Position numbers and translations under genes: made by a program. This document shows, piece by piece, positions 11,684 to 39,129 of a stretch of DNA of 64,000 nucleotides. The first letter of the stretch is position 1. Every line of letters begins with the position of its first letter. The DNA comes from Planctomycetota bacterium (GTDB lineage Bacteria > Planctomycetota > UBA8108 > SXIK01). The DNA is taken from contig OZ244999.1 in NCBI GenBank assembly GCA_965223265.1, forward strand, positions 4,608,001 through 4,672,000. Direction: 5' to 3'. The notes beneath the pieces are model-generated. The model searched no databases, was not told the origin of the DNA, and was given only the letters and a program-made list of their open reading frames with translations.

Positions 11684-11807
11684 GAATCTTCCATCTCCTG
11701 CCGGGTCGCCGCCCCCTCTCCCCCGCCTCGTCTCACCTTTGCGAGATTGTAGTGACAAGGGCAGCTGTCGCGACAGGATCAGAGGCACACACCGAGGCAC
11801 GAACCAG

Positions 11808-14800
11808 TGCAGCTCACTCGCACACCTCGTAGTACTGACACGAGAGCGCATCAGCGCTCGAGTCGACGCCGCAGAGCTGCGGTGGCTCGGGCGCCGCGCC
11901 GCCCACGAAAAGGTGCAGGAGCAGCTTCACCGCGTCGCTCACCGTCACGCGTCCGTCGTCGTCGACGTCCGCCGCCCTCACGCAGGTCGGTGCCGCGCCG
12001 CGGCGAAACAGGTAGTTGAGCAGCGTCAGCGCGTCGCCAAGTGCCAGAGTGCCGTCGGCCTCCACGTCGCCGCGCTGAAACAGCGCCTCCGAGCGCTCTC
12101 CCTTCTCGTAGAACGTCGCCGCTTCCTCGGCGATCAGCGCGTAGCTCCCATCGAGGTAGCGCACCTGCGCCACCTCCTCGGCCTCTCCGGGAAGCACCGG
12201 ATCCGGAGCCTCCACCTCCACCACTCGCACCGCGCGAGCAAGACCCGCGACCGAAAGCGCCGGGTCCAGAACCACCCAGTAGCGAACGTCCACGTTGTGG
12301 CGACCCGCCGAGTAGACCAGTTGCCAGTAGTCGCTCACCACAACCGACTCGCCGCCGCCAAACACCACCGAAGCACGCTGAAGACTCGCAGGGCCCGTCG
12401 ATTGGCGATTCTCCGACGGCAAAAATCGCTCCACTAAATCGATCCGTGCACCGCTCGACGTCTCCAACGAAAGCTCCCAGCGCGGCAAGAGCCCATCGCT
12501 ACACGACGAGTAACTCACCAGAGGCTCACCCGCCAAGCTCCCCGTCGACACCAGCGAAAACCTCAAAAACTCCTCGTCCACCAAAAACCGCTCCTCCAGC
12601 GCGCGCGAGCCCGCACCGCGAAGCTCCACTCCCAAAAGCTGCACCACGTAGCTCTCGCCACCCAGCAGCGTGAACTCCTGCTCGTAGCTGAAGCGATACA
12701 GCGTCACTCCACCCCCCTCCGCTACCCGCGCCACGCGGTAAAGACCCGCCGCCACAGCCTGAGCCTCCTCCTGCTCAGGGCCAAAGCGAACACTCTCGAT
12801 CAGCTCACCTGAAAAACTCTCCGAGCTCGTCACAAGCTCGTGCACTCCGGCGCGCAGACGCACCTCGCTCTTCAGCTCGTACTCCACCTGGGGATCGCGG
12901 CCAGTGCGGTCCGCCGAAAACACCCCGCACAAAACCGTCCCCTCGGGAACCAAAAGCTCAAAAGCCGGTGACGGCACAACCGTCTCCGGAATCAAAAACG
13001 GACGCACCTGCTTCACCGCTAATGAGCCGTCCGCCTCCACCTTGAACTCAAAGTCCAAAAGCACCTGCTCGCGAGGATAACCTTCAAGATCCAAAGGAAA
13101 GTTCGTATCCACATGCCACATCAGAGAACCCAGATCTCCCAGCTGCTCCTCCGTCAGAACCACCTCCCCCGCACCAACCAGAGATGAGCTCCGGTCGCGA
13201 ACGATCCGCACTACCTCACCTTCAACCACCTCCAAAAAATTCCGCTCCACGCTCACACCCGCCGCTGGACTCACTACGCTCTCCTCGCCAACCTGAGCGG
13301 TGATCATGTAGCGCCGATCTCGAACGTTCTGAGGGTTACCGGTGAACGCAACTCCGTTCGCTGCCTCATCGAGGAAGGCCCGGTTCACCAGCAAACCCAT
13401 CGTCGCTGCCTCTGGAGGAATCTGGAAAAACGTCCGCTCCTCATGCGCTCGGAACGTCCAAAGGCTCGACCACACCTTCTTCAGAGCGCGCTCGATCGTC
13501 CGCTCGTTGTCGCGCGTCGCGTCGCAGTGAGAGCTGTCAGGGCTCGCAGGGTCCAGCGTGTCCGCGGCGCACGCAGACGTCGACTCGTAAAGGCCCGCAC
13601 CGTTGAACTCCAGCGCGTCCTCGACATTCGACGACGAGCGAAAGCGAACCATCAGAGCGCGAGAGCCGAAAACCTCTTCGATCCGCCCTACAAGCCCCGC
13701 CACCAGCGCTGGCGACACCTCGCCACGATCTCGCACAAAGTCGCGAAATTCATCCAGCACCCTGAAGCGCACAGATGAATCGCTCTTGAACTCCTCACTC
13801 GATAGCAGCTCCGTCAGATACTCCTGGTAGCTCAGGTCGCGTCCCTCGATCGCGACGCGGTTCGACTCCATGAACTCCACGTAGTAGCGCATCGGGATGC
13901 CAAAACCAGCCTCTTGAAACTCAGCGTACTCCCCAGTCAAAACTCGCTGCAGCCGCGCAAGGTTCGTCGCCTTGCCGCCGAAGCGAGACACCGGGTTCAC
14001 AACGCCCTCCAGATCCATATCCAAGAGGTGATCAAAGCCGCCGTACTCCCGATCGGTCCCAGCAAGGCGCGGCAGCGAAGGCTGGTTCTCCCGCCAAAAC
14101 TCCTCAGCCTCAGACACACTCGCTGGCTCCACTAAGTACGTCACCTCACCCACCTCAAGGCGCACCAGCTCGCCCGCAAAGCGGGAAAACTCCTCCACTG
14201 CTCCCAATACAAACGCGTTCGGGGTCCCGCGCCGTGCCGTCCGCACCGCCACGTGACTCAGTGGCCCTTGAATGCTTCCCGTCACGAAACCACCGATCAC
14301 ACCCTCTACGTCCTGCGGCGCCGTCTCCACAACCACTATGTCTTGAAACGTGAACAGACCCTGAGAGTTCGCGCTCTCGAACTCCTCCAGCGTGAACACG
14401 CGCACCCGCCCGTAACCCACTCCAAGCGTGTAAGCCTCGTACTCCAGCTCCGGGGTAGGCTCCGTCAAAATCGGAAACGCAGGATCACTCCAGCTCGAAG
14501 CAGCCTCCTTCGCAAGCTGCGTGTCCGGCTCGTAGCCTAAAAGCTCTAAATCAAACGCCCCCTTCAGCTCCAGGTACACGCTCTCAACCTCAGACTCGCT
14601 CAAAACCTCAGAGGCGTCAGAGCCTGTGTCCGCAAACACCGTGAAAGCGTACTCGATTCCACCCGAGCCTCGCCGCCGAGCGATCGAGCCCACGTAGTAG
14701 TCGCGCGTTGCGCGGCGCCCTACCAGCTGGTCGTACTCCTCCCCTTGAGGGCGCGTCGGAAACTGATCCGGAAACGCTCCAGCCAGAAAATCCTCGTGAA

Positions 14801-14936
14801 GGCTGAAACGACGAACGTTCTGAAACACCGCTGGGATCAAGCTCCCGTCGTCACCACGCGCCGGCACCACGTACTTCGTGAAGCGACCAAGGCTCGACGG
14901 AACCGAAATGCTGAAAAAGTCCCCTTCCGTGCAGAC
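11808..14936. repeat. 3.1-kb near-identical repeat, copy 1 (constant cassette; GRINS-like skew)
   Basis: Same offset at both ends to 17258-20386 (5450) and to 28851-31936 (17039); C/A-rich on the + strand. Confidence 0.92.
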
Positions 14937-17267
14937 CTGTTCAAGAAAGTCGCCGCCGAGTCGCGGTGCTTGATTCAAAAGCACCGTGAGGTCACGTGAA
15001 TTACGGTTGGCGCTGACGAGATCGAGATCGCCGTCGCGATCGAGATCGCCTGCGACGCCGAAGCGCGGCTGCGAGCCAACCGGCTGGACCACGGGCAGGG
15101 TGAATGATCGATCACCGTTGCTAAAGAACGTCGCGAGCGTGTTGGTCGATGGGCTGGATGCAATCACATCGAGAATCCCGTCACCGTCGACGTCACCTGC
15201 AATCAAGGAATGCGGTTGCCGTTCGACCGTCAGGTTGGTGACGGCGGAGAAATCGGCTGTGCCATCGTTCCATAGCACTGCGGCACTACCTCTCGACTCA
15301 CTCGCTGTCACTACGTCGACTGCCCCGTCGGCATCGAAGTCACCAGCGATGATAAAGTTCGGTGCATCCGCCACCGGAAAGGCTGTTGTGTCGCCGAATC
15401 CCGCAGCCCCATCGCCACGAAGAATCGCCACGTCCCTCGAGCCTGAGTTGGCCACCGCCAGGTCGACGTTTCCATCGGCGTCGAAATCGACGGCAACAAG
15501 AGCCGCCGGCTGCGTTCCTGCCACAGGCGATGCACCAGCGGCAAACGTACCGTCGCCCTGATTGATCAACACCGAGACCGTTCCCGCCGATTGATTCGAC
15601 GTAACGAGCTCGGGGAAACGATCGCCCGTAAGCTCGGCCGCCGTCACATGCGATGGCGTATCTCCGACTGGGTACTCAACGCTCGTCTCGAAAACACCGT
15701 CGCCTCGGTTGGGAAAGACGTAGAGCGTGTTCGGAAAAATACCGTCGGTCGCCGCGAGGTCGAGGTCACCATCATCATCGACGTCTGCAAGCTCGACGCG
15801 CAGAGGGTTTTCCGCGATCACGTACTCGACAGCGTCGAAAAACGATCCGTCGCCACGATTGACGAAGGCTGAAAGAGCAACGGCGTTGTCGTTGTTCCCC
15901 GTAACAATGTCGAGATGCCCGTCACCGTTGATGTCACCAATGTCCACGGTGTGCGGCTCACTTGCGGCATCGAACGTAGCTGACAAAAACGGAATAGTCC
16001 TCGTCTCACCTTCCGTGTTCCAAACGATGGAGACGTTGTTAGTGCGGACGACGAGGAGAGCGACGTCTACGTCACCGTCACCGTCGAAATCATCAGCCCA
16101 CGATGTCGTCGACGGGAACAGATTCCCGTGGTCTTCGACCGCCGCGCGAAAGTCGCTCGAGCGGTGACTCCTGAGAACTGCGACTTTACCAACGTCGCGA
16201 AATCCGGCCACGAGGTCGAGCTGGCCGTCGCCTTCGATGTCAGCTGCACCAAGCGACGTGACTGAACCTGATAGCGTAAATGTGACCGGCGCAGCGAAGG
16301 TCCCATCCCCACGGTTGACGAGGATCGCGCTGGCACCTGATCCGGCAACCGCCAAGTCGACGTGAGCATCGCCGTTGAGGTTGCCCGCCACGACCGCGAA
16401 CGGCACCCCGGCTCCGGCCGGATAGTCCACGTGCTGCTCGAAGTCTGAGTCAGCTCGGCTTGCGAGTATAGAGACGACGTCCGTCTTGCTAGCCACCGCG
16501 ACGTCGACGATCCCATCATCGTTGAAATCCGCGGCGGCCACGGCGCTCGGCTGCGCAGAAACGGAGAACGGCTTTGGAGCCTCGAACGTGCCGTCACCGC
16601 GGTTCGTTAGGAGTGCGACTTGGCTCTCCGTCTCGATGGTGACGACCAGGTCGTCGCTACCGTCGCCCGTGAAGTCAGCCGCCGCAATTCGTAGCGCCGA
16701 AGGCGCAACGTCATATCCTACCGGAGGCATAAACCCTACGCCCCCCGAGTTCAAAAGCACCTGAATCGAGTCGTCGCTGGCCGTGGCGAGATCTGGACGG
16801 CCATCGCGGTCTAGGTCCGCAACAGTGAAATCCGCCAGCTTTTCACCGGCATCGAAATCGGTCGCCTCAGAAAACCGTCGATCGCCTTCGTTGATCAAAA
16901 GCGACACCGTTGACGATTGGTTCAGCGCCTGGCTTGCCGAGACGAGGTCTCGATCACCATCGCCGTCAAAATCGACGCTGCGAACGACACGCGGGAATCG
17001 TGCCACCGCAAGCGTTGTCGCCTCGACATCAAAGGTCACAGGACTCGCTTCGCACTCATCCGGTATGCCGTTGTTGTTGCAATCGTCGCTCGCGTTATTC
17101 GCGATGTCATCCAAGTCATCGGCGCTGTTACCATTACAGTCGACACCATAGGCATGCGCCGGCGCAAAGGAGAACACGATGGCCGCGCCGAGAAGGATCG
17201 ACGTCTTCGCAAGACGGCTTCTCCACGGGTCTCTTGCGTTTGGTAGATCCGTCTTGCTGCAGCTCAC
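11814..17267 (-). CDS. paralog A: exported FG-GAP repeat / phospho-His + ATP-grasp dikinase / dockerin-like protein (~1,817 aa)
   Basis: Signal-like segment, DCNGN...DCNNNGIPDEC, many DxDGDGxxD FG-GAP repeats, GPLSHVAVRTARRGTPN (His codon 14253-14255), FGGKATNL, RSSSNVED...GAGLYES, KKVWSSLW, DFEFK, KQVRP, and C-terminal FQRGD...ADVDDDGRVTVSDAV. GTG at 17267 overlaps the TGA of paralog B (ORF open from 17273). Confidence 0.88.
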   Translation of the reverse strand: MSCSKTDLPNARDPWRSRLAKTSILLGAAIVFSFAPAHAYGVDCNGNSADDLDDIANNASDDCNNNGIPDECEASPVTFDVEATTLAVARFPRVVRSVDFDGDGDRDLVSASQALNQSSTVSLLINEGDRRFSEATDFDAGEKLADFTVADLDRDGRPDLATASDDSIQVLLNSGGVGFMPPVGYDVAPSALRIAAADFTGDGSDDLVVTIETESQVALLTNRGDGTFEAPKPFSVSAQPSAVAAADFNDDGIVDVAVASKTDVVSILASRADSDFEQHVDYPAGAGVPFAVVAGNLNGDAHVDLAVAGSGASAILVNRGDGTFAAPVTFTLSGSVTSLGAADIEGDGQLDLVAGFRDVGKVAVLRSHRSSDFRAAVEDHGNLFPSTTSWADDFDGDGDVDVALLVVRTNNVSIVWNTEGETRTIPFLSATFDAASEPHTVDIGDINGDGHLDIVTGNNDNAVALSAFVNRGDGSFFDAVEYVIAENPLRVELADVDDDGDLDLAATDGIFPNTLYVFPNRGDGVFETSVEYPVGDTPSHVTAAELTGDRFPELVTSNQSAGTVSVLINQGDGTFAAGASPVAGTQPAALVAVDFDADGNVDLAVANSGSRDVAILRGDGAAGFGDTTAFPVADAPNFIIAGDFDADGAVDVVTASESRGSAAVLWNDGTADFSAVTNLTVERQPHSLIAGDVDGDGILDVIASSPSTNTLATFFSNGDRSFTLPVVQPVGSQPRFGVAGDLDRDGDLDLVSANRNSRDLTVLLNQAPRLGGDFLEQVCTEGDFFSISVPSSLGRFTKYVVPARGDDGSLIPAVFQNVRRFSLHEDFLAGAFPDQFPTRPQGEEYDQLVGRRATRDYYVGSIARRRGSGGIEYAFTVFADTGSDASEVLSESEVESVYLELKGAFDLELLGYEPDTQLAKEAASSWSDPAFPILTEPTPELEYEAYTLGVGYGRVRVFTLEEFESANSQGLFTFQDIVVVETAPQDVEGVIGGFVTGSIQGPLSHVAVRTARRGTPNAFVLGAVEEFSRFAGELVRLEVGEVTYLVEPASVSEAEEFWRENQPSLPRLAGTDREYGGFDHLLDMDLEGVVNPVSRFGGKATNLARLQRVLTGEYAEFQEAGFGIPMRYYVEFMESNRVAIEGRDLSYQEYLTELLSSEEFKSDSSVRFRVLDEFRDFVRDRGEVSPALVAGLVGRIEEVFGSRALMVRFRSSSNVEDALEFNGAGLYESTSACAADTLDPASPDSSHCDATRDNERTIERALKKVWSSLWTFRAHEERTFFQIPPEAATMGLLVNRAFLDEAANGVAFTGNPQNVRDRRYMITAQVGEESVVSPAAGVSVERNFLEVVEGEVVRIVRDRSSSLVGAGEVVLTEEQLGDLGSLMWHVDTNFPLDLEGYPREQVLLDFEFKVEADGSLAVKQVRPFLIPETVVPSPAFELLVPEGTVLCGVFSADRTGRDPQVEYELKSEVRLRAGVHELVTSSESFSGELIESVRFGPEQEEAQAVAAGLYRVARVAEGGGVTLYRFSYEQEFTLLGGESYVVQLLGVELRGAGSRALEERFLVDEEFLRFSLVSTGSLAGEPLVSYSSCSDGLLPRWELSLETSSGARIDLVERFLPSENRQSTGPASLQRASVVFGGGESVVVSDYWQLVYSAGRHNVDVRYWVVLDPALSVAGLARAVRVVEVEAPDPVLPGEAEEVAQVRYLDGSYALIAEEAATFYEKGERSEALFQRGDVEADGTLALGDALTLLNYLFRRGAAPTCVRAADVDDDGRVTVSDAVKLLLHLFVGGAAPEPPQLCGVDSSADALSCQYYEVCE

Positions 17268-20200
17268 TCGCACACCTCATAGTACTGACACGAGAGCGCA
17301 TCAGCGCTCGAGTCGACGCCGCAGCTCTGCGGCGGCTCGGGCGCCGCGCCGCCCACGAAAAGGTGCAGGAGCAGCTTCACCGCGTCGCTCACCGTCACAC
17401 GTCCGTCGTCGTCGACGTCCGCCGCCCTCGCGCAGCTCGGAGCTGCGCCGCGGCGAAAGAGGTAATTCAACAGCGTCAGCGCATCGCCAAGCGCCAGAGT
17501 GCCGTCGGCCTCCACGTCGCCGCGCTGAAACAGCGACTCCGAGCGCTCTCCCTTCTCGTAGAACGTCGCCGCTTCCTCGGCGATCAGCGCGTAGCTCCCA
17601 TCGAGGTAGCGCACCTGCGCCACCTCCGGAGCTTCTCCGGGAAGCACCGGATCGGGAGCCTCCACCTCCACCACTCGCACAGCGCGATCAAGACCCGCTA
17701 CTGAGATCTCTGGATCCAAAACCACCCAGTAGCGAACGTCCACGTTGTGGCGACCCGCCGAGTACACCAGCTGCCAGTAGTCGCTCACCACAACCGACTC
17801 GCCGCCGCCAAACACCACCGAAGCACGCTGAAGACTCGCAGGGCCCGTCGATTGGCGATTCTCAGACGGCAAAAATCGCTCCACTAAATCGATCCGTGCA
17901 CCGCTCGACGTCTCCAACGAAAGCTCCCAGCGCGGCAAGAGCCCATCGCTACACGACGAGTAACTCACCAGAGGCTCACCCGCCAAGCTCCCCGTCGACA
18001 CCAGCGAAAACCTCAAAAACTCCTCGTCCACCAAAAACCGCTCCTCCAGCGCGCGCGAGCCCGCACCGCGAAGCTCCACTCCCAAAAGCTGCACCACGTA
18101 GCTCTCGCCACCCAGCAGCGTGAACTCCTGCTCGTAGCTGAAGCGATACAGCGTCACTCCACCCCCCTCCGCTACCCGCGCCACGCGGTAAAGACCCGCC
18201 GCCACAGCCTGAGCCTCCTCCTGCTCAGGGCCAAAGCGAACACTCTCGATCAGCTCACCTGAAAAACTCTCCGAGCTCGTCACAAGCTCGTGCACTCCGG
18301 CGCGCAGACGCACCTCGCTCTTCAGCTCGTACTCCACCTGGGGATCGCGGCCAGTGCGGTCCGCCGAAAACACACCGCACAAAACCGTCCCCTCGGGAAC
18401 CAAAAGCTCAAACGCCGGTGACGGCACAACCGTCTCCGGAATCAAAAACGGACGCACCTGCTTCACCGCCAGCGAGCCGTCCGGCTCCACCTTGAACTCA
18501 AAGTCCAAAAGCACCTGCTCGCGAGGATAGCCTTCAAGATCCAGAGGAAAGTTCGTATCCACATGCCACATCAGAGAACCCAGATCACCCAGCTGCTCCT
18601 CCGTCAGAACCACCTCCCCCGCACCAACCAGAGATGAGCTCCGGTCGCGAACGATCCGCACCACCTCGCCTTCAACCACCTCCAAAAAGTTCCGCTCCAC
18701 GCTCACACCCGCCGCTGGACTCACTACGCTCTCCTCGCCAACCTGCGCCGTGATCATGTAGCGACGATCTCGAACGTTCTGAGGGTTACCGGTGAACGCA
18801 ACTCCGTTCGCTGCCTCATCGAGGAAGGCCCGGTTCACCAGCAGACCCATCGTCGCTGCCTCTGGAGGAATCTGGAAAAACGTCCGCTCCTCGTGCGCGC
18901 GGAACGTCCAAAGGCTCGACCACACCTTCTTCAGCGCCCGCTCGATCGTCCGCTCGTTGTCGCGCGTCGCGTCGCAGTGCGAGCTGTCAGGGCTCGCAGG
19001 GTCCACTGTGTCCGCGGCGCACGCAGACGTCGACTCGTAAAGGCCCGCACCGTTGAACTCCAGGGCGTCCTCGACATTCGACGACGAGCGAAAGCGAACC
19101 ATCAGCTCCCGCGAGCCGAAAACCTCTTCGATCCGCGCTACAAGCGACGCCACCAGCGCTGGCGACACCTCGCCGCGGTCTCGCACAAAGTCGCGAAATT
19201 CATCCAGCACCCTGAAGCGCACTGATGAGTCGCTCTTGAACTCCTCACTCGATAGCAGCTCCGTCAGATACTCCTGGTAGCTCAGGTCGCGTCCCTCGAT
19301 CTCGACGCGGTTCGACTCCATGAACTCCACGTAGTAGCGCATCGGGATGCCAAAGCCAGCCTCTTGAAACTCAGCGTACTCTCCAGTCAAAACTCGCTGC
19401 AGCCGCGCAAGGTTCGTCGCCTTGCCGCCGAAGCGAGACACCGGGTTCACTACGCCCTCCAGATCCATATCCAACAGGTGATCAAAGCCGCCGTACTCTC
19501 GATCGGTCCCAGCAAGGCGCGGCAGCGAAGGCTGGTTCTCTCGCCAAAATTCCTCCGCCTCAGATACACTCGCTGGCTCCACCAAATACGTCACCTCACC
19601 CACCTCAAGGCGCACCAGCTCGCCCTCAAAGCGGGAAAACTCCTCCACCGCTCCCAGTACAAACGCGTTCGGGGTCCCGCGCCGCGCCGTCCGCACCGCC
19701 ACGTGACTCAGTGGCCCTTGAATGCTACCCGTCACGAAACCACCGATCACACCCTCTACGTCCTGCGGCGCCGTCTCCACAACCACTATGTCTTGAAACG
19801 TAAAGAGACCCTGAGAGTTCGCGCTCTCGAACTCCTCCAGCGTGAACACGCGCACCCGCCCGTAACCCACTCCAAGCGTGTAAGCCTCGTACTCCAGCTC
19901 CGGGGTAGGCTCCGTCAAAATCGGAAACGCTGGATCACTCCAGCTCGAAGCAGCCTCCTTCGCAAGCTGCGTGTCCGGCTCGTAGCCTAAAAGATCTAAA
20001 TCAAACGCCCCCTTCAGCTCCAGGTACACGCTCTCAACCTCAGACTCACTCAAAACCTCAGAGGCGTCAGAGCCTGTGTCCGCAAACACCGTGAAAGCGT
20101 ACTCGATTCCACCCGAGCCTCGCCGCCGAGCGATCGAGCCCACGTAGTAGTCGCGCGTTGCGCGGCGCCCTACCAGCTGGTCGTACTCCTCCCCTTGAGG

Positions 20201-20386
20201 GCGCGTCGGAAACTGATCCGGAAACGCTCCAGCCAGAAAATCCTCGTGAAGGCTGAAACGACGAACGTTCTGAAACACCGCTGGGATCAAGCTCCCGTCG
20301 TCACCACGCGCCGGCACCACGTACTTCGTGAAGCGACCAAGGCTCGACGGAACCGAAATGCTGAAAAAGTCCCCTTCCGTGCAGAC
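17258..20386. repeat. 3.1-kb near-identical repeat, copy 2
   Basis: From TGCAGCTCACTCGCACACCTC to CCCCTTCCGTGCAGAC, collinear with 11808-14936. Confidence 0.92.
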
Positions 20387-22756: not shown

Positions 22757-25700
22757 CCTGAGTAAAACTGGCAGGAGAGTGCATCAGGCGTCGGGTCAGT
22801 GCCGCACGAGAGAGGTGCCACCGGCGCCGCCCCGCCAGCAAAGAGGTGGAGGAGAATCTTCACTCCGTCGCTGACCGTCACGCGACCGTCGTCGTCGACA
22901 TCGGCAGTCTTGACGCACTCGGGTGCGGCACCGCGGCGAAAGAGGTAGCCGAGAAGCGACAGAGCGTCGCCCAGCTGCAGCATCCCGTTCACCTCCACGT
23001 CGCCACGTACGAAAAACGCCTCAGCTGTACGCACCTTGTTGAACGCGGTGGGCATCACCGTTGTCATCACGACGAAGTTGTCGTCCAGATATCGCACGAC
23101 TGCGGTTTCCGGTGGTTCGCCGGGAAGCACCGGATCCGGTGCCTCGACCTCGACGACCTTGACGGGTCGCTCCACGCCAGTAACGTTGATAGGCGTCTCC
23201 AAAACGACCCAGTAGCGCACGTCCACATTGTGGCGTCGCGCCGAGTAAACGAGACGCCAGTAGTCCGTCACCACGATGCTGTGGCCATCGAGCTCGATTT
23301 CCGCACGGCGCAGACTTGCCGGCCCTGACGACAAGTTGACCTCTGACGGTAAAAACCGCTCGACGAGCGAGATGCGCGAACCGCCGCCAAGATCAACGTC
23401 GATCTCCCACCGCGGCAAGAGCGAATGAGTGCACGACGAGTAACCAGTCACAGGTTGCCCCGCGAGCACCCCCCGCGCCGAGAGCTGAGAGGTCATGAAG
23501 TCTTCGTCGAAGCTGAGCGTTTTTTCCACCGGCGTCGACCCACGCCCTCTCAAGTCGAAGCCCGAGAGTCGAACTTCGAAGGCATCGCCACTGGGCAGTT
23601 GAAACCCTTGCGTGTACGAAAAACTGTAAACTGTCTCGCCATTCGTCCCCGCGGCGGCTTCGACTTGGAAGAGCCCAGTCTCCACCGCCGTAGCCACAAG
23701 CTGCTCGGGACCAAAGACGACCTCTTCGATGAGATCAGCCGAAAACGAGGACGATCCAGTTGGCAGCGGATGGACACCCGATCTCAGCGTCACCCGACTC
23801 TTCGTCTCGTACTCCGTGCGCGGTTCGCGACCGTCAAGATCCTCTGTGAAGACGCCGCAAAGAGCGGTCCCCGCAGGCACCTCGAGCTCAAAGTCCGGCG
23901 AAGGAGGTACGGTGTCCGGGATGAGAAACGGCCGGACTTGCTTCACGGCGAGCGAACCGTCCGGTTCGATCTTGAACTCGAAATCGAGAAGCACCTGCTC
24001 GCGAGCATGGCCCTCCAAGTCGAGAGGAAAGTTCTGATCGATGTGCCACATGAGCCGGCCGAGAGTACTCAGGTCGTCGTCCGACATCACAACCTCGCCA
24101 GGTTCGACCAGCGACGAACGCCGATCGCGGACGATCCGCACAACGTCTCCGTCGGACACCTCCAGAAATGTACGCTCGACGCTGATCCCTGCGGCTGGGC
24201 TGACAACGCTTTCTTCACCGAGCTGCGCCGTGATCATGTAGCGCCGGTCCCGTACGTTCTGTGGATTGCCGGTGAACGCGACGCCGTTCGCTGCCTCGTC
24301 AAGAAAAGCTCGATTGACGAGCAGCCCCATCGTCGCGGCCTCCGGAGGAATCTGAAAGAACGTGCGCTCCTCATGAGCGCGAAACGTCCACAGGCTCGAC
24401 CAGACTTTCTTGAGCGCGCGTTCAATCGTTCGCTCGCTATTGCGCGTCGGGTCGCAGTGTGATCCGTCAGGAGTCGCCGGATCAACGGTGTCCGCAGCAC
24501 AGACCGACGTCGACTCGTAGAGGCCGGCGCCGTTGAACTCGAGAGCATCTTCGACGTTCGACGACGAGCGAAAACGTACCATCACCTGGCGCGAGCCGAA
24601 CACTTCTTCGATGCGCGCCACGAGCGCAGCGACGAGTGCCGGATCGACGACGCCTTCGCCGCGAACCAGCTCTCGGAACTCCTCTAACCTTTGGAAGCGA
24701 GTCGCTGAATCGCTCTTGAAGGTCTCGTCTGCAAGCATTTCAGCGAGAAACTCTGCGTAGCTCAGGTCACGACCGCCGACATCGACGCGATTCGTGGCCA
24801 TAAACTCAACGTAGTAGCGCATGGGAATCGCAAAGCCCTGCTCCTGGAACTCCGCTAGCTCGCCGGTCAAGACGCGCTGCAAGCGTGCGAGATTCGTGGC
24901 CTTGCCGCCGAAACGTGACACCGGGTTAACAGCTCCTTCAAGCTCCATATCGAAGAGATGATCAAAGCTTCCGTGCGTCGCATCGATGCCAGCGAGTCGC
25001 GGCAACGACGGTCGATTCGTGGCCCAAAAGTCTTCGGCCTCCTGAGGATCCGCCTCATCGACGAAAAACGTCACCGGACCGACTTCCAGTCGGACGAGCC
25101 GATTCTCGAAGCGGGCAAACTCCTCGAGTGCGTCGGCAACAAAGGCGTTCGGCGTACCCCGTCTTGCCGTCCGCACCGACACGTGACTCAGCGGCCCCTG
25201 GATGGCTCCGGTGATGAACCCTCCGACAACTCCTTCGACGTCTCGAGGCGCCTCGTCAACGACGATGATGTCCTGAAACGTGAAGAGCCCGCTCGAGTTC
25301 GCCGCCTCAAACTCTTCGAGAGTGAAAATACGCACGCGTCCAAATCCGATGCCCAGCGTGTACGCTTCGTAGTCGATCTGTGGAGCCGACTCCGAAACGA
25401 TCGGAAACGGCGGATTCTGCCACGTCGCCGCCTGATCCTTCGCCAGTTGGGTGTCTGGTTCGTACGCCAAAAGCTCCAGGTCGAAAGCCGTCAGCAGCTG
25501 CTGATAGACATGCTCAACCTCCGACTCTTGAAGCACTTCGGCGGGATCGAAGCCGGTGTCGGCGGCAACCGTAAACGCGTAGACGATTCCCTCTGCGGTG
25601 CGGCGCCGCGCCAAAGCGCCGACGTAGTAGTCACGGGTGGCGCGACGACCGACCAATTCGTCGTACTCGTCGCCCTGCGGCCGAGTTGGAAATCGATCGG

Positions 25701-28365
25701 GAAAAGCACCGGCAAGGAAATCTTCGTGCAAGCTGAAACGTCGCACGTTCTGAAACACCGGTGGGATCAAACTCGGATCGTCCTTCGCCGGCACGACGAA
25801 CTTGACGAAGCGTCCAAGGCTCGACGGCACCGAAATGCTGACGAAATCACCCTCGGTGCAGATGCGCTCAAGGAAGTCAGCGTCGACGACTGGTGTCTGA
25901 TTTGACAGCACCGTGATATCGACTGAACCCCAGTTTGCGGTCACGAGGTCAAGATCGCCGTCGAGATCAACATCGCCCGTGAAGATATGGCGCGGATTGT
26001 TACCGACCGCGAACGTCAGCGAACGTTCGAGCGCCTGGCCGGCGCCGACGAACAGCACAGACGCGCTATTATCCCCGACGTTAGCGGTCGCCATCTCGGC
26101 GCGACCGTCGCGATCCATGTCGCCGACAGCGATCGACGCCGGAGCGAAGTCGACGCTGGCGCTTACTGCGGGTGCGAACAACTCGTCACCGCCCGTCTGA
26201 CCAAGATTCCGCAGCATCGACACACTCCCCGCACCGCGGTTCGCAGTCGCCAAGTCGATGTATCCATCACCATCGAGGTCGCCAGCCGCGATCCCCGACG
26301 GAGAGCCGGCGACTGGATAACGCCGCGGCGGGTCGAACGTTCCGTCGCCTCGATTGATCAGCAGCTCGACTCCACCTCCCGCCGAAATCGCGACGTCGAG
26401 GTCGCCGTCGCGATCGACATCCGCGGTCATGCTGAACGACTGAGAACTACCAACGTCGATCGAGGTGCCCTCAAAGGTTCCGTCCTGAAGGTTTCTGAAA
26501 ACACTGAACGAGCTGACGAAGCTGTGGGATACGAAGAATTCCGGAAAGCCGTCGCCCGTGGTATCGCCTGTTGAGACGTGGATCGGCTTGTCTGACACCG
26601 TGTAGCCACCGGCGTGGGCGTAGCGGTTCTCTCCGTCGTTGGTCATGATCTCGACGCGGGTCGTCACGGCTGTGCCGCCGCCACCGAGCGCGGCGATATC
26701 GAGGTCGCCATCGCTTTCAACGTCGAAAAGCGCGAGAGAAATCGTGCTGCCCTCCGTGGTGTAACCGACGCGGTCGGGGTAGGTTCCATCGCCGCGATTG
26801 ACATAGACCGTGATACCGTTGACGCGCGTGTTGTTGCCCGTGATGGCATCGATATCACCGTCGCCATCGATGTCGCCAATGGCGCCAGTGTGCGGCTTCG
26901 CCGTCGACTGGTAAGCACTGGAGGCGAAGGACACTGATCGGGTCGACTCGCCGTCGTTGCGGGCGAGCTCCACCGAGTTGTTCGTGATGACCACCGCGTC
27001 GCAATCACCGTCTCCGTCGATGTCGCCGGCGGCGACGGCGCGTGAGCGGAGCAGGTTCCCTTGAGTCTCCACCAAGCCACGAAATTCTGCGGCAGGTTCG
27101 CCGGCAGATACAGTGACGTTGCGAACGAGCATCAATTGATCCGACCGCAGAAAGCTGACAACGATGTCGGGATCAATGTCCCCGTCGACATCGCCGACGG
27201 CAATTGCAGAAGCTGTGCCAGAGTAATTGACGATGCTCGGCGCACCGAAGCTGCCGTCCCCCGCGTTCGTCAAAACGGCCACGGCCGATCCACTGCCCAA
27301 AGCGAGGTCGATCGAACCGTCACCATCGAAATCACTCGCGACGATGCCAAACGGCCGCACGACCCCGGCCGGGTAGTCCACCGAGCTGGCCAAGTTTCCG
27401 TCGCCTTGACTGAGCAGCACAGACACGGTCGCACTGTTGCGGTTGCCAACTGCCAAGTCGACATCACCGTCGCCGTTGAGGTCAGCTGCAAGAACGGAGC
27501 TGGGAAACTCGCCAACCGCGTGCGGTTGTGGCGCGAGGAAACTACCACTGCCTTGGTTTTCAAGCACTGAAACCGAGCCGGCCGCCGAGTGTGTCACGAT
27601 CAAATCGGGCAAACCGTCGCCGCTTAAGTCTCCAGCGACAATCGCTGCCGCTGTCTCGCCGACGATCACCGCCACGCCATCGGCGAACGTTCCCGTACCG
27701 TCGTTCTCGAAAAGGAGCAACTGCGTTTCGTTGACGCTGACGACATCGGCAGCTCCGTCATCCGTCAGATCTGCCACCGCGAGCGCCGAAAGCTTCGTCC
27801 CGGCGTCGTACTCGACGGCAGAGCTGAACACGGCGTCGACCGGGTCGCGCAGCAACACTGACAAAATCGACGTCCCGTCAGTCGCTTGACTGCCAACGAC
27901 GATGTCGAGCTCACCGTCACGATTGAAATCCGCTGTCGCCACGGCGAGGGGGAAACGCGGTACAGCGAGAGGACTTCCCTCGAGCTCGAACGTCAGCGGA
28001 TTGACATCGCACTCGTCCGGAATGGCATCGCCATTGCAATCGTCACTGAAGGAACTGGCGATGTCATCGAGGTCGTCGATGTCGTTGCCGTTGCAATCGG
28101 CTGCGTTCGACTGCGGCAGGGACAGAAGGAGCGCAGTCGACACCAAAGCCAGCAAAGTCGAGATGCGCCCGGAACCCCCGAGGAGGCGGTAAGGGACGGC
28201 CAAGACGCTCAAGGGAGTTGAGAACATCGGACGTCGAATGCGACCGGCGTGACACATTCCGAACGCATGCCTCTCTGGTGGCAAGCGCATACTGGATTCC
28301 CCCGAAAGATGGCGTTGGTCGGGCCGACGCGCTCCACACAGCAGTGCGCTAGCCCACGAAGTCAC
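22747..28365 (-). CDS. paralog C: exported FG-GAP / dikinase / dockerin-like protein (C-terminal half homologous but not part of the near-identical repeat)
   Basis: GPLSHVSVRTARRGTPN (His codon 25183-25185), the same ATP-grasp motifs, and dockerin-like FVRGD...ADVDDDGRVTVSDGV. True start is probably downstream (e.g. ATG 28227). Confidence 0.88.
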   Translation of the reverse strand: MTSWASALLCGARRPDQRHLSGESSMRLPPERHAFGMCHAGRIRRPMFSTPLSVLAVPYRLLGGSGRISTLLALVSTALLLSLPQSNAADCNGNDIDDLDDIASSFSDDCNGDAIPDECDVNPLTFELEGSPLAVPRFPLAVATADFNRDGELDIVVGSQATDGTSILSVLLRDPVDAVFSSAVEYDAGTKLSALAVADLTDDGAADVVSVNETQLLLFENDGTGTFADGVAVIVGETAAAIVAGDLSGDGLPDLIVTHSAAGSVSVLENQGSGSFLAPQPHAVGEFPSSVLAADLNGDGDVDLAVGNRNSATVSVLLSQGDGNLASSVDYPAGVVRPFGIVASDFDGDGSIDLALGSGSAVAVLTNAGDGSFGAPSIVNYSGTASAIAVGDVDGDIDPDIVVSFLRSDQLMLVRNVTVSAGEPAAEFRGLVETQGNLLRSRAVAAGDIDGDGDCDAVVITNNSVELARNDGESTRSVSFASSAYQSTAKPHTGAIGDIDGDGDIDAITGNNTRVNGITVYVNRGDGTYPDRVGYTTEGSTISLALFDVESDGDLDIAALGGGGTAVTTRVEIMTNDGENRYAHAGGYTVSDKPIHVSTGDTTGDGFPEFFVSHSFVSSFSVFRNLQDGTFEGTSIDVGSSQSFSMTADVDRDGDLDVAISAGGGVELLINRGDGTFDPPRRYPVAGSPSGIAAGDLDGDGYIDLATANRGAGSVSMLRNLGQTGGDELFAPAVSASVDFAPASIAVGDMDRDGRAEMATANVGDNSASVLFVGAGQALERSLTFAVGNNPRHIFTGDVDLDGDLDLVTANWGSVDITVLSNQTPVVDADFLERICTEGDFVSISVPSSLGRFVKFVVPAKDDPSLIPPVFQNVRRFSLHEDFLAGAFPDRFPTRPQGDEYDELVGRRATRDYYVGALARRRTAEGIVYAFTVAADTGFDPAEVLQESEVEHVYQQLLTAFDLELLAYEPDTQLAKDQAATWQNPPFPIVSESAPQIDYEAYTLGIGFGRVRIFTLEEFEAANSSGLFTFQDIIVVDEAPRDVEGVVGGFITGAIQGPLSHVSVRTARRGTPNAFVADALEEFARFENRLVRLEVGPVTFFVDEADPQEAEDFWATNRPSLPRLAGIDATHGSFDHLFDMELEGAVNPVSRFGGKATNLARLQRVLTGELAEFQEQGFAIPMRYYVEFMATNRVDVGGRDLSYAEFLAEMLADETFKSDSATRFQRLEEFRELVRGEGVVDPALVAALVARIEEVFGSRQVMVRFRSSSNVEDALEFNGAGLYESTSVCAADTVDPATPDGSHCDPTRNSERTIERALKKVWSSLWTFRAHEERTFFQIPPEAATMGLLVNRAFLDEAANGVAFTGNPQNVRDRRYMITAQLGEESVVSPAAGISVERTFLEVSDGDVVRIVRDRRSSLVEPGEVVMSDDDLSTLGRLMWHIDQNFPLDLEGHAREQVLLDFEFKIEPDGSLAVKQVRPFLIPDTVPPSPDFELEVPAGTALCGVFTEDLDGREPRTEYETKSRVTLRSGVHPLPTGSSSFSADLIEEVVFGPEQLVATAVETGLFQVEAAAGTNGETVYSFSYTQGFQLPSGDAFEVRLSGFDLRGRGSTPVEKTLSFDEDFMTSQLSARGVLAGQPVTGYSSCTHSLLPRWEIDVDLGGGSRISLVERFLPSEVNLSSGPASLRRAEIELDGHSIVVTDYWRLVYSARRHNVDVRYWVVLETPINVTGVERPVKVVEVEAPDPVLPGEPPETAVVRYLDDNFVVMTTVMPTAFNKVRTAEAFFVRGDVEVNGMLQLGDALSLLGYLFRRGAAPECVKTADVDDDGRVTVSDGVKILLHLFAGGAAPVAPLSCGTDPTPDALSCQFYSGCD

Positions 28366-28850
28366 CGTTTCTCCAGCGTGTGTGGTGGTCTACAACCCGA
28401 ACCACGAAGTCGCGAGGTCCGATCTTCTCACCACTTGGCGACTGCTTGAGAAGCTGGCAGCGCCGCGGTGAGAACAACCGTTCGCCTGCTGACACCCTCC
28501 TCGATCTCAGCTGATCGAATTCACCCAACGGAAGAGGCCACTCCTTCCGAAACTGGCCGCCATCGTGCCTGGCACGCGAGGCGTGGTCAACGATTGATTG
28601 AGGCACGCACCTGGACAAGTCCGCTCATTCGGTTGAACGAGGTCGCAGGTGAGATCGTTCCGGCAACCTCGAAAACCGTGTGCCTTTCCGGTCTCCGTAG
28701 CCGTCTGAGTTCGAGAGCGTGGACCGCGCGACGAACTCAAAACGAAGAGTCCCGCGCGTCAACGAATCGTGCTCGGCCCTGGATCGCAGGATCCACGCTA
28801 CTGGCGTACGCGTACCGTCGTTCGAATCAACGACGGCCTGCGGGCGACGG

Positions 28851-31800
28851 GCTCACTCGCACACCTCATAGTACTGACACGAGAGCGCATCAGCGCTCGA
28901 GTCGACGCCGCAGTTCTGCGGCGGCTCGGGCGCCGCGCCGCCCGCGAAAAGGTGCAGGAGCAGCTTCACCGCGTCGCTCACCGTCACGCGTCCGTCGTCG
29001 TCGACGTCCGCCGTCTTGACGCAGCTCGGTGCCGCGCCGCGGCGAAACAGGTAATTCAACAGCGTCAGCGCATCGCCAAGCGCCAGAGTGCCGTCGGCCT
29101 CCACGTCGCCGCGCTGAAACAGCGACTCCGAGCGCTCTCCCTTCTCGTAGAACGTCGCCGCTTCCTCGGCGATCAGCGCGTAGCTCCCATCGAGGTAGCG
29201 CACCTGCGCCACCTCCGGAGCTTCTCCGGGAAGCACCGGATCGGGAGCCTCCACCTCCACCACTCGCACAGCGCGATCAAGACCCGCTACTGAGATCTCT
29301 GGATCCAAAACCACCCAGTAGCGAACGTCTACGTTGTGACGGCGCGCCGAGTAGACCAGCTGCCAGTAGTCGCTCACCACAACCGATTCGCCACCGCCGA
29401 ACACCACTGACGCGCGCTGGAGACTCGCCGGACCTGTCAGCAAGCGCCCTTCTGGTGGCAAAAATCGCTCCACTAAATCGATCCGTGCACCGCTCGCCGT
29501 CTCCAACGAAAGCTCCCAGCGCGGCAAGAGCCCATCGCTACACGACGAGTAACTCACCAGAGGCTCACCCGCCAAGCTCCCCGTCGACACCAGCGAAAAC
29601 CTCAAAAACTCCTCGTCCACCAAAAACCGCTCCTCCAGCGCACGCGAGCCCGCACCGCGAAGCTCCACTCCCAAAAGCTGCACCACGTAGCTCTCGCCAC
29701 CCATCAGCGTGAACTCCTGCTCGTAGCTGAAGCGATACAGCGTCACTCCACCCCCCTCCGCTACCCGCGCCACGCGGTAAAGACCCGCCGCCACAGCCTG
29801 AGCCTCCTCCTGCTCAGGGCCAAAGCGAACACTCTCGATCAGCTCACCTGAAAAACTCTCCGAGCTCGTCACAAGTTCGTGCACTCCGGCGCGCAGACGC
29901 ACTTCGCTCTTCAGCTCGTACTCCACCTGGGGATCGCGGCCAGTGCGGTCCGCCGAAAACACCCCGCACAAAACCGTCCCCTCGGGAACCAAAAGCTCAA
30001 AAGCCGGTGACGGCACAACCGTCTCCGGAATCAAAAACGGACGCACCTGCTTCACCGCCAGCGAGCCGTCCGGCTCCACCTTGAACTCAAAGTCCAAAAG
30101 CACCTGCTCGCGAGGATAACCTTCAAGATCCAAAGGAAAGTTCGTATCCACATGCCACATCAGAGAACCCAGATCTCCCAGCTGCTCCTCCGTCAGAACC
30201 ACCTCCCCCGCACCAACCAAAGATGAGCTCCGGTCGCGAACGATCCGCACCACCTCGCCTTCAACCACCTCCAAAAAATTCCGCTCCACGCTCACACCCG
30301 CCGCTGGACTCACTACGCTCTCCTCGCCAACCTGAGCGGTGATCATGTAGCGCCGATCTCGAACGTTCTGAGGGTTACCGGTGAACGCAACTCCGTTCGC
30401 TGCCTCATCGAGGAAGGCCCGGTTCACCAGCAAACCCATCGTCGCTGCCTCTGGAGGAATCTGGAAAAACGTCCGCTCCTCATGCGCTCGGAACGTCCAA
30501 AGGCTCGACCACACCTTCTTCAGCGCACGCTCAATCGTCCGCTCGTTGTCGCGCGTCGCGTCGCAGTGTGAGCTGTCAGGGCTCGCAGGGTCCAGCGTGT
30601 CCGCGGCGCACGCAGACGTCGACTCGTAAAGGCCCGCACCGTTGAACTCCAGCGCGTCCTCGACATTCGACGACGAGCGAAAGCGAACCATCAGAGCGCG
30701 AGAGCCGAAAACCTCTTCGATCCGCCCTACAAGCCCCGCCACCAGCGCTGGCGACACCTCGCCACGATCTCGCACAAAGTCGCGAAATTCATCCAGCACC
30801 CTGAAGCGCACAGATGAATCGCTCTTGAACTCCTCACTCGATAGCAGCTCCGTCAGATACTCCTGGTAGCTCAGGTCGCGTCCCTCGATCGCGACGCGGT
30901 TCGACTCCATGAACTCCACGTAGTAGCGCATCGGGATGCCAAAACCAGCCTCTTGAAACTCAGCGTACTCCCCAGTCAAAACTCGCTGCAGCCGCGCAAG
31001 GTTCGTCGCCTTGCCGCCGAAGCGAGACACCGGGTTCACAACTCCCTCCAGATCCATATCCAACAGGTGATCAAAGCCGCCGTACTCCCGATCGGTCCCA
31101 GCAAGGCGCGGCAGCGAAGGCTGGTTCTCCCGCCAAAACTCCTCAGCCTCAGACACACTCGCTGGCTCCACCAAGTACGTCACCTCACCCACCTCAAGGC
31201 GCACCAGCTCGCCCGCAAAGCGGGAAAACTCCTCCACTGCTCCCAATACAAACGCGTTCGGGGTCCCGCGCCGTGCCGTCCGCACCGCCACGTGACTCAG
31301 TGGCCCTTGAATGCTTCCCGTCACGAAACCACCGATCACACCCTCTACGTCCTGCGGCGCCGTCTCCACAACCACTATGTCTTGAAACGTGAACAGACCC
31401 TGAGAGTTCGCGCTCTCGAACTCCTCCAGCGTGAACACGCGCACCCGCCCGTAACCCACTCCAAGCGTGTAAGCCTCGTACTCCAGCTCCGGGGTAGGCT
31501 CCGTCAAAATCGGAAATGCAGGATCACTCCAGCTCGAAGCAGCCTCCTTCGCAAGCTGCGTGTCCGGCTCGTAGCCTAAAAGCTCTAAATCAAACGCCCC
31601 CTTCAGCTCCAGGTACACGCTCTCAACCTCAGACTCGCTCAAAACCTCAGAGGCGTCAGAGCCTGTGTCCGCAAACACCGTGAAAGCGTACTCGATTCCA
31701 CCCGAGCCTCGCCGCCGAGCGATCGAGCCCACGTAGTAGTCGCGCGTTGCGCGGCGCCCTACCAGCTGGTCGTACTCCTCCCCTTGAGGGCGCGTCGGAA

Positions 31801-31936
31801 ACTGATCCGGAAACGCTCCAGCCAGAAAATCCTCGTGAAGGCTGAAACGACGAACGTTCTGAAACACCGCTGGGATCAAGCTCCCGTCGTCACCACGCGC
31901 CGGCACCACGTACTTCGTGAAGCGACCAAGGCTCGA
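28851..31936. repeat. 3.1-kb near-identical repeat, copy 3
   Basis: From GCTCACTCGCACACCTC to AAGCGACCAAGGCTCGA, collinear with 11812-14897; one locally divergent patch at about 29330-29460. Confidence 0.92.
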
Positions 31937-39007: not shown

Positions 39008-39031
39008 CAGCGAACGCCCACGTATCAGCTG

Positions 39032-39077
39032 AATCGGTTACAGCGGTCCTGTCGGCCCGCTGTAACCGATTTTTTTT
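39032..39077 (+). terminator. Rho-independent terminator
   Basis: 15-bp perfect stem AATCGGTTACAGCGG / CCGCTGTAACCGATT, 10-nt loop and a T-run, starting 25 nt after the stop at 39007. Confidence 0.85.
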
Positions 39078-39129
39078 CGTCGGTGAGGCCTCAGAGCGCT
39101 CGGTTTTCCGGTGGCGTGCGGCAGCGCTG

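Follow-up and report, generated by a model that had tools for sequence, protein, structure and literature searches.

The stretch of DNA analysed here, called the window throughout, comprises 64,000 nucleotides (nt) at positions 4608001-4672000 of a bacterial genome assembled as a 9.18-Mb single contig, and the relatives of its proteins carry the label Planctomycetota. It contains five minus-strand open reading frames (ORFs) of 1807-1872 residues each, paralogs A-E, whose start codons are predicted as the first in-frame start (Table 1). The subject of this report is the 3' 3.1-kb cassette of these genes, which in A, B and D is near-identical and is skewed towards G and, to a lesser degree, T on the coding strand. 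An initial annotation had likened these repeats to GRINS (genetic repeats with intense nucleotide skews), a class described in 2021 (PMC8256042), and had proposed that a mutagenic conversion process acts on them.

In the protein alignment, any pair of paralogs is 30-50% identical over the first ~880 columns. Over the last ~1023 residues, A, B and D are 92-100% identical to one another, 55-90% identical to C and 43-80% identical to E. At the DNA level, the cassette repeats of A, B and D are 3086-3129 bp long and 97% identical to one another, and the megablast limits fall at 14936, 20386 and 31936, where the initial annotation had placed them; when delimited by 30-nt identity, the tracts are 11807-14939 for A-B and 11811-14902 for A-D, each at 97%. 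The nearest relative of the A/B/D cassette is that of C, with ~71% protein and ~70% DNA identity, and both ERTIERALKKVW and RRYMITAQ, which had been cited as common to A and C, are found in A, B, C and D. In all five paralogs, some ten FG-GAP repeats precede a weak match to PPDK_N, and a dockerin match lies at the C terminus of A, B, D and E.

Table 1. Paralog genes, cassettes and N-terminal halves in the window
Feature	Position	Strand	Basis and remarks
Paralog A gene	11814-17273	-	ORF
Paralog B gene	17264-22756	-	ORF
Paralog C gene	22747-28365	-	ORF
Paralog D gene	28853-34276	-	ORF
Paralog E gene	54515-59938	-	ORF
Cassette copy A	11808..14936	-	megablast; 3' 3.1 kb, C-terminal ~1023 residues; homogenised, G/T-skewed
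Cassette copy B	17258..20386	-	megablast; homogenised, G/T-skewed
Cassette copy D	28851..31936	-	megablast; tract ~35 nt shorter at 5' side than in A and B
Variable N-terminal half of A	14937..17273	-	Pfam FG-GAP_3, FG-GAP; GC skew +0.045, fourfold +0.06 (unskewed)
Variable N-terminal half of B	20387-22756	-	equivalent to 14937-17273 of A
Variable N-terminal half of D	31937-34276	-	equivalent to 14937-17273 of A
Cassette of C (internal control)	22747..25812	-	same strand, same array; neither homogenised nor skewed; fourfold GC skew +0.07
Cassette of E (second control)	54515..57580	-	same strand; unskewed; fourfold GC skew -0.03

Skew of the cassettes and of their unskewed paralogs

On the coding strand, the A, B and D cassettes have GC skews of +0.228 to +0.233 and TA skews of +0.166 to +0.176, whereas the corresponding values are +0.056 and +0.100 in the C cassette and +0.026 and +0.086 in the E cassette; the GC skew of the five N-terminal halves is +0.03 to +0.07. 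Paralogs C and E therefore serve as built-in controls, as had been suggested. The skew was originally noted from base counts of three 60-nt lines (12541, 12901 and 14101; together C78 G28 A51 T23), and these counts are exact, as are those of two lines (15421 and 23521) given for comparison. The skews of 0.47 (GC) and 0.38 (TA) calculated from the three lines are likewise correct, but these lines were high picks, and the whole repeat gives 0.23 and 0.17.

We applied the recipe published for GRINS, which uses 150-nt windows with a 30-nt step and requires the mean absolute skew to exceed 0.15 for both GC and TA over repeats of >500 bp with >80% identity (PMC8256042). By this measure, the mean absolute GC skew is 0.234-0.239 in A, B and D, compared with a genome background of 0.084 ± 0.018 (3059 windows of 3 kb), in which two of the 3059 windows reach 0.23. 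The mean absolute TA skew is 0.172-0.186, compared with 0.133 ± 0.033 for the genome, which places these cassettes 1.2-1.6 standard deviations (SD) up. The GC component is extreme, and the TA component is modest and constitutes much weaker evidence. In the A cassette, for example, signed skews of +0.228 (GC) and +0.176 (TA) accompany mean absolute values of 0.236 and 0.183, a GC-TA skew correlation of r = 0.48 and a fourfold GC skew of +0.49. The correlation is 0.48-0.55 across the A, B and D cassettes, as against 0.00 and -0.20 in those of C and E and -0.05 to 0.21 in the N-terminal halves.

The skew is strongest at third codon positions, where the GC values of the A, B and D cassettes are +0.30 to +0.31 and those of C and E are -0.01 and -0.04. 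A fourfold test was made on 285 alignment columns that hold the same residue in A, C and E and belong to a fourfold codon box. At these sites, A has G137 C55 T68 A25, a GC skew of +0.43 (+0.43 to +0.44 across A, B and D), whereas C has G95 C115 T49 A26 and E has G93 C114 T43 A35, a GC skew of -0.10 in both. Because the skew is kept where the residues are identical, amino-acid content is not the explanation. The initial annotation had named beforehand two results that would speak against it, a skew no greater than that of C and E and a skew explained by amino-acid composition, and neither was observed. Among 3877 ORFs (a crude set of ORFs of at least 300 residues, chosen greedily), the mean fourfold GC skew is -0.067 ± 0.114 and the highest value is 0.48. 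Outside the cassette family, 6 of 628 in-frame 1023-codon windows reach a fourfold GC skew of 0.35, and five of these six lie in one other repeat-bearing gene.

Homogenised groups and gene conversion among 35 cassettes

The genome-wide count of cassettes that had been called for was made with tblastn and gave 35 full-length copies. Of these, 33 belong to ORFs of ~1,800-1,900 residues with a propeller part, and two, p06 (1075 residues) and p22 (1099 residues), are stand-alone cassettes. Nine of the 35 are at least 97% identical to another copy and make up three groups: group 1 (p08 and p09, at 2.31 Mb; 3171 bp at 98.4% identity), group 2 (A, B and D, inside the window, with the lengths and identity given above) and group 3 (p30-p33, at 8.24-8.28 Mb; 2.0-3.2 kb at 98-99%). 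The fourfold GC skew of these nine homogenised cassettes is +0.14 to +0.54, and that of the 26 others is -0.47 to +0.09. In group 1, the mean absolute skews are 0.214-0.219 (GC) and 0.155-0.160 (TA).

In the cassette tree, the three groups fall into three clades, each next to unskewed sisters, namely C (+0.07) and p26 (-0.15) for A/B/D, p07 (+0.05) and p23 (+0.08) for group 1, and p02 (-0.31) and p00 (-0.15) for group 3. All 26 non-homogenised cassettes are without G skew, and on this basis trait parsimony indicates that the skew would have arisen three times.

In all three groups, the N-terminal halves and the cassettes give conflicting trees. The N-terminal half nearest to that of A belongs to p26, 1.4 Mb away; those of p30, p31 and p33 each have a different non-homogenised paralog as their nearest relative; and that of p09 groups with p07 and p23, not with p08. 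As the N-terminal half of p32 stands beside the p31/p03 pair while p30, p31 and p33 have different neighbours, the four members of group 3 form no clade. Within the cassettes, A, B and D differ at 125 sites, which lie in blocks, with B as the odd copy at cassette nt ~530-1650, D at 2021-2594 and A at 2616-2870. These sites form 28 runs, compared with 83.0 ± 5.1 after permutation (28 or fewer in 0 of 10,000 permutations), and at least three separate tracts would be needed to account for the block pattern. Together, the discordant half-gene trees and the block mosaic demonstrate repeated gene conversion, not recent duplication; with the tract-limited skew described below, they bear out the conversion that had been proposed. 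The homogenised copies are in tandem or lie within ~42 kb of each other, p30 being inverted relative to its group 3 partners. We conclude that neighbours in local arrays have repeatedly overwritten the C-terminal module by homologous gene conversion. In the window, the stop region of B overlaps the predicted start of A by 10 nt (17264-17273) and that of C overlaps the start of B by the same length (22747-22756), so that A, B and C look like one tightly packed tandem operon; the spacing between C and D is 487 nt.

It could be asked whether the recoded cassettes came from a foreign donor with G-ending codon usage, as their codon usage is atypical for this genome, or whether their near-identity is an artefact of assembly. 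However, the groups nest among native unskewed sisters in three clades, and C is 71% identical to the A/B/D cassette whereas the best external relatives are at most 54-56% identical. The copies also lie in frame with different N-terminal halves and differ from one another as a block mosaic. In addition, the listed runs that contain the stretch comprise four DNA-type runs of one sample, possibly the source of the genome, and no RNA run, and the assembly was checked against two of the four: short-read contigs break at the repeat edges (for example, the piece 14907-17291), and the word depth on the cassette, which is not a copy number, is about threefold. Foreign origin or artefact is thus extremely unlikely. 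In two other genomes (G001 and G007), paralog pairs that are tandem or neighbouring are 68% identical and unskewed, which is consistent with the pattern seen here, although these are two pairs only; the assemblies of most relatives are fragmented, and near-identical repeats would not assemble there.

The initial annotation had asked whether the boundaries of the skew coincide with the repeat edges, and the two prove to lie close together. Maximum-likelihood change-points in G versus C at fourfold sites are located 3063-3207 nt upstream of the stop in all nine homogenised genes, and the identity tracts start 2888-3177 nt upstream of it, each change-point being 15-114 nt from the start of the longest tract of its gene. 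In A, the change-point is 3117 nt before the stop and the identity tract starts 3101-3135 nt before it; in B, the change-point is at 3132 nt. The likelihood ratios are 33-100 for the nine homogenised genes, compared with 3-11 in seven of eight control paralogs. Group 3 follows the same rule on a finer scale, as a ~2-kb tract common to p30-p33 is skewed in all four copies. Over the last ~1 kb, identity is confined to p31 and p32, and so is the skew (+0.15 to +0.36), whereas p30 and p33 have unique ends with values of -0.20 to +0.17. The conversion tract is limited on its 5' side by the end of alignable homology, at the propeller/module junction, and on its 3' side at or before the stop codon, and it is the homogenised tract, and only this tract, that has been recoded to G and, less, to T on the coding strand, three independent times.

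Signature, amount and polarity of the recoding

The three groups converge on the codon set GTG, CTG, GCG, ACG, GAG and AAG. The share of GTC falls from 0.47 to 0.03-0.06 and that of GTG rises to 0.69-0.81; CTC, GCC, ACC and TCC drop as well, with gains for G-ending and partly for T-ending codons. Likewise, a share of 0.92-0.93 of the Glu, Lys and Gln codons ends in G, up from 0.66 (GAG 0.92-0.95, AAG 1.00). TAC stands at about 0.9, TAT, AAT and CAT are slightly down (NAT to NAC), GGC and CGC are largely retained, and GGG and CGG gain little. The ratio C:T in twofold pyrimidine-ending codons is 78:38 in A, 75:41 in C and 77:39 in E, and the fourfold G+C is 413/590 (0.70), 424/594 (0.71) and 417/580 (0.72), respectively; the main shift is from C to G on one strand. 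Third-position GC skews are +0.20 to +0.30 in the three groups, compared with -0.13 ± 0.08 in the controls. In all three groups, G makes up 38.1% of the cassette bases, and this shared value across independently recoded groups suggests a common ceiling or equilibrium. Antisense ORFs of up to 314 residues on the plus strand were considered and set aside, since their placement is inconsistent across A, B and D; we take them to result from the scarcity of A at third positions.

Recoding is heaviest at synonymous sites, and replacement sites move in the same direction, from Asp to Glu and from Ile to Val. First- and second-position GC skews lie 2-5 SD above those of 25 unskewed cassettes. The D>E and I>V trends glimpsed in the initial annotation thus hold across the family: E/(D+E) is 0.64-0.72, compared with 0.47-0.60 in the 26 unskewed cassettes, and Glu is above the entire range of these 26 controls in all three groups. 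Gly (z 3.3), Val (z 1.6) and Ser are up; Pro (z -3.1), His (-1.8), Thr (-1.4), Asp and Ile are down; Trp, Cys and Gln are unchanged.

A shift so codon-specific and convergent, which leaves GGC and CGC in place, adds little GGG or CGG and moves NAT to NAC, could also be expected from selection on codon usage or mRNA, in which the cassette is tuned to a tRNA pool, an expression state or an RNA structure and conversion copies the tuned version. However, five proxies for high expression (EF-Tu, EF-G and three GroEL) use the opposite codons, with fourfold GC skews of -0.05 to -0.21 and a preference for GTC, CTC and CGC. Moreover, the N-terminal half of the same transcript is untuned, the replacement sites shift likewise with convergent residue changes, and an unrelated gene with internal repeats, the PKD/LamG gene described below, has the same skew. 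We consider selection of this kind unlikely.

The description of the process as mutagenic was not supported by counts of change. Tajima-type unique residue changes number 87 in A and 82 in C (outgroup p26), 112 in p08 and 126 in p07, and 114 in p31 and 118 in p02, and unique nucleotide changes number 327 in A and 337 in C. One of the nine relative-rate comparisons that involve a positively skewed cassette is significant, and the comparison of p14 with p04 is not. As the skewed lineages have no excess of substitutions, the recoding represents an altered direction, not an altered amount, of change. The lack of acceleration speaks against hypermutation and in favour of a bias in fixation or transmission.

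The polarity of the skew was related to replication by placing the origin at ~7.96 Mb and the terminus at ~3.54 Mb from the cumulative GC skew. In eight of the nine homogenised cassettes the G-rich strand is the coding strand and the leading strand at once, and it is also the leading strand in the PKD/LamG gene. The exception is p30, which is skewed in the lagging orientation and has its tract in common with inverted partners. The single-copy cassette p14 (4110517-4113612, plus strand, outside the window), which is in the lagging orientation, is recoded oppositely, with a fourfold GC skew of -0.47, a TA skew of -0.15 and C-ending codons throughout. Its change-point, 2964 nt upstream of the stop, again falls at the propeller/module junction (likelihood ratio 34), and the leading strand is again G-rich, that is, the sign is the same in replication terms. 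The leading strand is thus G-rich in five of five independent cases (one-sided 0.03, uncorrected), a number of cases that gives a hint only; for four of them replication is inseparable from transcription.

These observations also bear on the idea that the skew is ordinary replication-strand asymmetry, merely more visible here. The sign fits, as leading-strand ORFs have a less negative fourfold GC skew and a higher TA skew (-0.013 and +0.198) than lagging-strand ORFs (-0.125 and +0.028), and the leading strand is the G-rich one in eight of the nine cassettes, the PKD/LamG gene and p14. However, the unskewed C and E cassettes share the strand and the region of the A, B and D copies, which refutes replication asymmetry as a sufficient cause, although it may still set the polarity. 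In addition, the magnitude of the skew is ~5-6 SD above that of leading-strand ORFs, the skew changes abruptly within single genes, and p30 is skewed in the lagging orientation. As the whole explanation, replication asymmetry is therefore very unlikely.

Merging the duplicated regions of the genome gave 145 regions, of which 16 pass both GRINS thresholds, five of them being cassettes of this family. The 130 repeat segments that lie in ORFs have a mean fourfold GC skew of -0.057, and many mobile-element copies that are 99-100% identical are unskewed or negative. Nine of the top 11 segments are the homogenised cassettes; the others are an ORF from a multi-copy element and the internal repeats of the PKD/LamG gene. 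This gene (4423326-4432433, minus strand, outside the window) encodes 3035 residues with PKD, Laminin_G_3, DUF2341, Big_7 and GSDH domains; it is unrelated to the cassette family, and its internal repeats have a ~1.8-kb offset and 92% identity. The fourfold GC skew is +0.40 to +0.66 in six 900-nt bins (~2.7-8.1 kb) and -0.20 to +0.08 in three 5' flank bins, and the last bin (8.1-9.0 kb) is within the megablast repeat yet has a value of +0.03, so the skew does not fill the whole repeat. The PKD/LamG gene is a second GRINS-like case in this genome. A 4.07-kb element, present in about ten copies (for example, 4184332-4188408 and 4763449-4767522) that are 99.9-100% identical, contains a 635-residue ORF with a fourfold GC skew of -0.42 in either orientation, and high copy identity alone therefore does not yield positive skew. 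The highest mean absolute GC skew per 3-kb window in the genome, 0.261, belongs to a single-copy ORF of 2012 residues (3290744-3296779, plus strand), whose fourfold GC skew reaches 0.37 and which has no TA skew and no blastn repeat.

In a search for Chi- or KOPS-like oriented octamers, none stood out, the best octamers being 74-85% leading-strand; the Escherichia coli Chi octamer occurs 1, 0 and 1 times in the cassettes. The enriched k-mers GTGGAG and GGAGGAG are a product of G-ending codons followed by GAG.

Relation to known systems and origin of the skew

The family probably consists of exported proteins of ~1,800 residues, with an N-terminal FG-GAP propeller and a self-contained C-terminal module. 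An AlphaFold model of the cassette, built from 55 sequences, has a mean pLDDT of 87.9. In a fold search, the central part of the model matched several enzymes at their ATP-grasp nucleotide-binding domain, namely rifampin phosphotransferase (E 2e-15; TM 0.73 to the isolated domain 5hv6_A), PEP synthase and pyruvate phosphate dikinase. Residues ~640-930 are beta-rich, without a clear fold match, and the dockerin comes next; when solved structures were searched with the cassette sequence, there were 0 matches. The C-terminal module of ~1,020 residues is predicted to comprise a dikinase-like ATP-grasp, followed by a beta-rich domain and a dockerin. Stand-alone cassette proteins of ~1,070 residues occur in many Planctomycetota assemblies, and the family is probably one of surface-exposed, non-biosynthetic enzymes. 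The region of the window is rich in predicted extracellular propeller proteins, and three ORFs between D and E (38983-41322 and 41584-45273, plus strand; 45335-47704, minus strand) encode a protein with CotH-kinase and lamin-tail domains and two more FG-GAP proteins, which carry UnbV_ASPIC domains.

The A/B/D repeats are GRINS-type and make up an unusually clean case in a new gene family and phylum. They agree with the published definition in every quantitative respect, so that the GRINS-like label proved apt, and group 1 does so as well. In common with GRINS, they are repeats of >500 bp with >80% identity and mean absolute GC and TA skews of >0.15, the two skews are positively correlated (r = 0.70 in the GRINS paper; PMC8256042) and strongest at third codon positions, Gly and Val are gained while Pro, Thr and His are lost, conversion acts between homologous modules, and single-copy skewed regions occur. 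The GRINS paper likewise mentions single-copy skewed regions and leaves the mechanism open (PMC8256042). Several differences exist, however. The planctomycete genes encode neither polyketide synthases nor a mobile element but an exported FG-GAP/dikinase-like/dockerin family. The occurrence outside polyketide synthases that was claimed initially is real but not new in principle, because GRINS have been found in five phyla, mostly in transposases and other mobile genes or genes other than polyketide synthases, in a sample that did not include planctomycetes (PMC8256042). Abrupt changes of skew sign, which are frequent in GRINS but outside the formal definition (PMC8256042), are absent here, as a single sign persists across 3.1 kb. 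The TA component is weak, and Trp, Cys and Gln do not shift, whereas in GRINS Gly, Val, Cys and Trp are up and Pro, Thr, His and Gln are down (PMC8256042). Finally, accelerated diversification has been proposed for GRINS (PMC8256042), and accelerated protein change is not seen here. In the library searched, the phrase 'intense nucleotide skews' occurred only in papers on polyketide or peptide synthetases, such as PMC11907408. For gene conversion with GC skew in bacterial paralogs, there was nothing relevant among the matches listed.

GC-biased gene conversion has reportedly been described in bacteria by Lassalle et al. in 2015. The present case resembles it in that a fixation bias tied to recombination alters synonymous composition, and in that twofold A/T endings move to G/C (NAA to NAG and NAT to NAC). 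However, GC-biased conversion is itself strand-symmetric and raises GC, whereas here the fourfold G+C is unchanged and C is replaced by G on one strand; this process is therefore not GC-biased conversion. A likeness also exists to the concerted evolution of surface-protein families, in which conversion keeps a module uniform while the adjoining binding part diverges, but such constant-region systems are not defined by strand skew, and here the homogenised part is compositionally recoded.

On balance, we think it probable that the cassettes are GRINS-type repeats produced by a conversion-linked bias towards G and T. The recoding would stem from a bias, asymmetric between the strands, as to which alleles survive conversion; one example would be biased correction of heteroduplex mismatches with the same strand always invading. 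Neither extra mutation nor selection on translation would be its source, and the bias would push each copy family to a common end point of 38% G. Among the variable sites of A, B and D, 63 have G/T as the allele held in two copies and A/C as the odd one, and 34 have the reverse; all three blocks agree in direction (binomial p 0.004, which is overstated as the sites are linked).

The opposite order of events, in which skew comes first, is the model of the GRINS authors (PMC8256042). One copy would be skewed for an unrelated reason, for example damage to the exposed strand linked to transcription or replication, and its G-rich, low-complexity sequence would then recombine more and spread. The coding strand, with 38% G, does carry 49-58 runs of at least three G, compared with a mean of 26, and 63-64 two-tetrad G-quadruplex-like (G4-like) motifs, compared with a mean of 8. 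RecA prefers GT-rich DNA and R-loops form on G-rich non-template strands, and skew arising first is compatible with an R-loop or a RecA-preference mechanism. The single-copy p14, skewed from the same junction, and the moderately skewed single-copy genes point the same way. However, this order needs three chance skewings in exactly those copies that were later homogenised, all ending at 38.1% G. No non-homogenised cassette (n = 26) is above +0.09 in fourfold GC skew, the skew stops at each tract end, including that of the tract found only in the p31/p32 pair, and the recoded cassettes have no canonical G3x4 motif. An origin of the skew before conversion therefore seems rather doubtful to us.

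Nevertheless, several observations weigh against the conversion-linked bias that we favour. Twofold NAY codons show no move from C to T, and GGC and CGC stay in place, which a plain bias of mutation or fixation predicts only with an added selective filter. The single-copy p14 has an equally strong skew of opposite sign at the same junction, and the few moderately skewed single-copy genes imply that skew can exist without a present partner. Group 3 does not pass the TA threshold and is not among the 16 regions that pass both GRINS thresholds. The 63:34 ratio comes from sites that are linked in blocks and fits equally well with erosion of the skew in the odd copy by new mutations, and the corresponding count in group 3 (25 vs 16) is not significant (p 0.21). 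Polarisation by parsimony with C and E as outgroups, as suggested in the initial annotation, does give an excess of C>G on the A/B/D branch (C>G 86 vs G>C 14), but the C branch is its mirror image (G>C 62 vs C>G 24) because of saturation and unequal composition. We therefore rejected it as a test of direction, and outgroup polarisation of the A/B/D variants has the same confound. As no event was observed and the closest external relatives are 54-56% identical, the direction of change rests on trait parsimony.

As a more tentative possibility, homologous conversion itself may, in this bacterium, carry a keto-favouring (G/T), strand-asymmetric transmission bias. This would deterministically take every coding module that is converted repeatedly to an attractor near 38% G and one codon set, with convergent protein change (Asp to Glu, Ile to Val and loss of Pro, Thr and His) without a rise in rate and with a polarity set by the replication fork, not by transcription. 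If this is true, GRINS would be the footprint of a general and measurable repair bias, not a special genetic element, and the 35-member family, with its three replicate events, the mirror-image p14 and 25 unskewed copies, would be a system in which to measure that bias.

The locus is a replicated natural experiment, in which one module present in 35 copies has been homogenised three times, with the same codon set and 38% G each time, and in which the same strand carries unskewed sisters at a distance of a few kilobases. Any mechanism is constrained by a substitution rate that is not raised, by changes from NYC to NYG and from NAA to NAG that spare GGC and CGC and leave NAY codons C-ending (the T form, if anything, falls), and by the leading strand being the G-rich strand in every independent case seen here. 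The recoding shifts protein composition convergently in a non-biosynthetic family, and the value of this family lies in its built-in replication and controls and in the limits that they place on the mechanism of GRINS.

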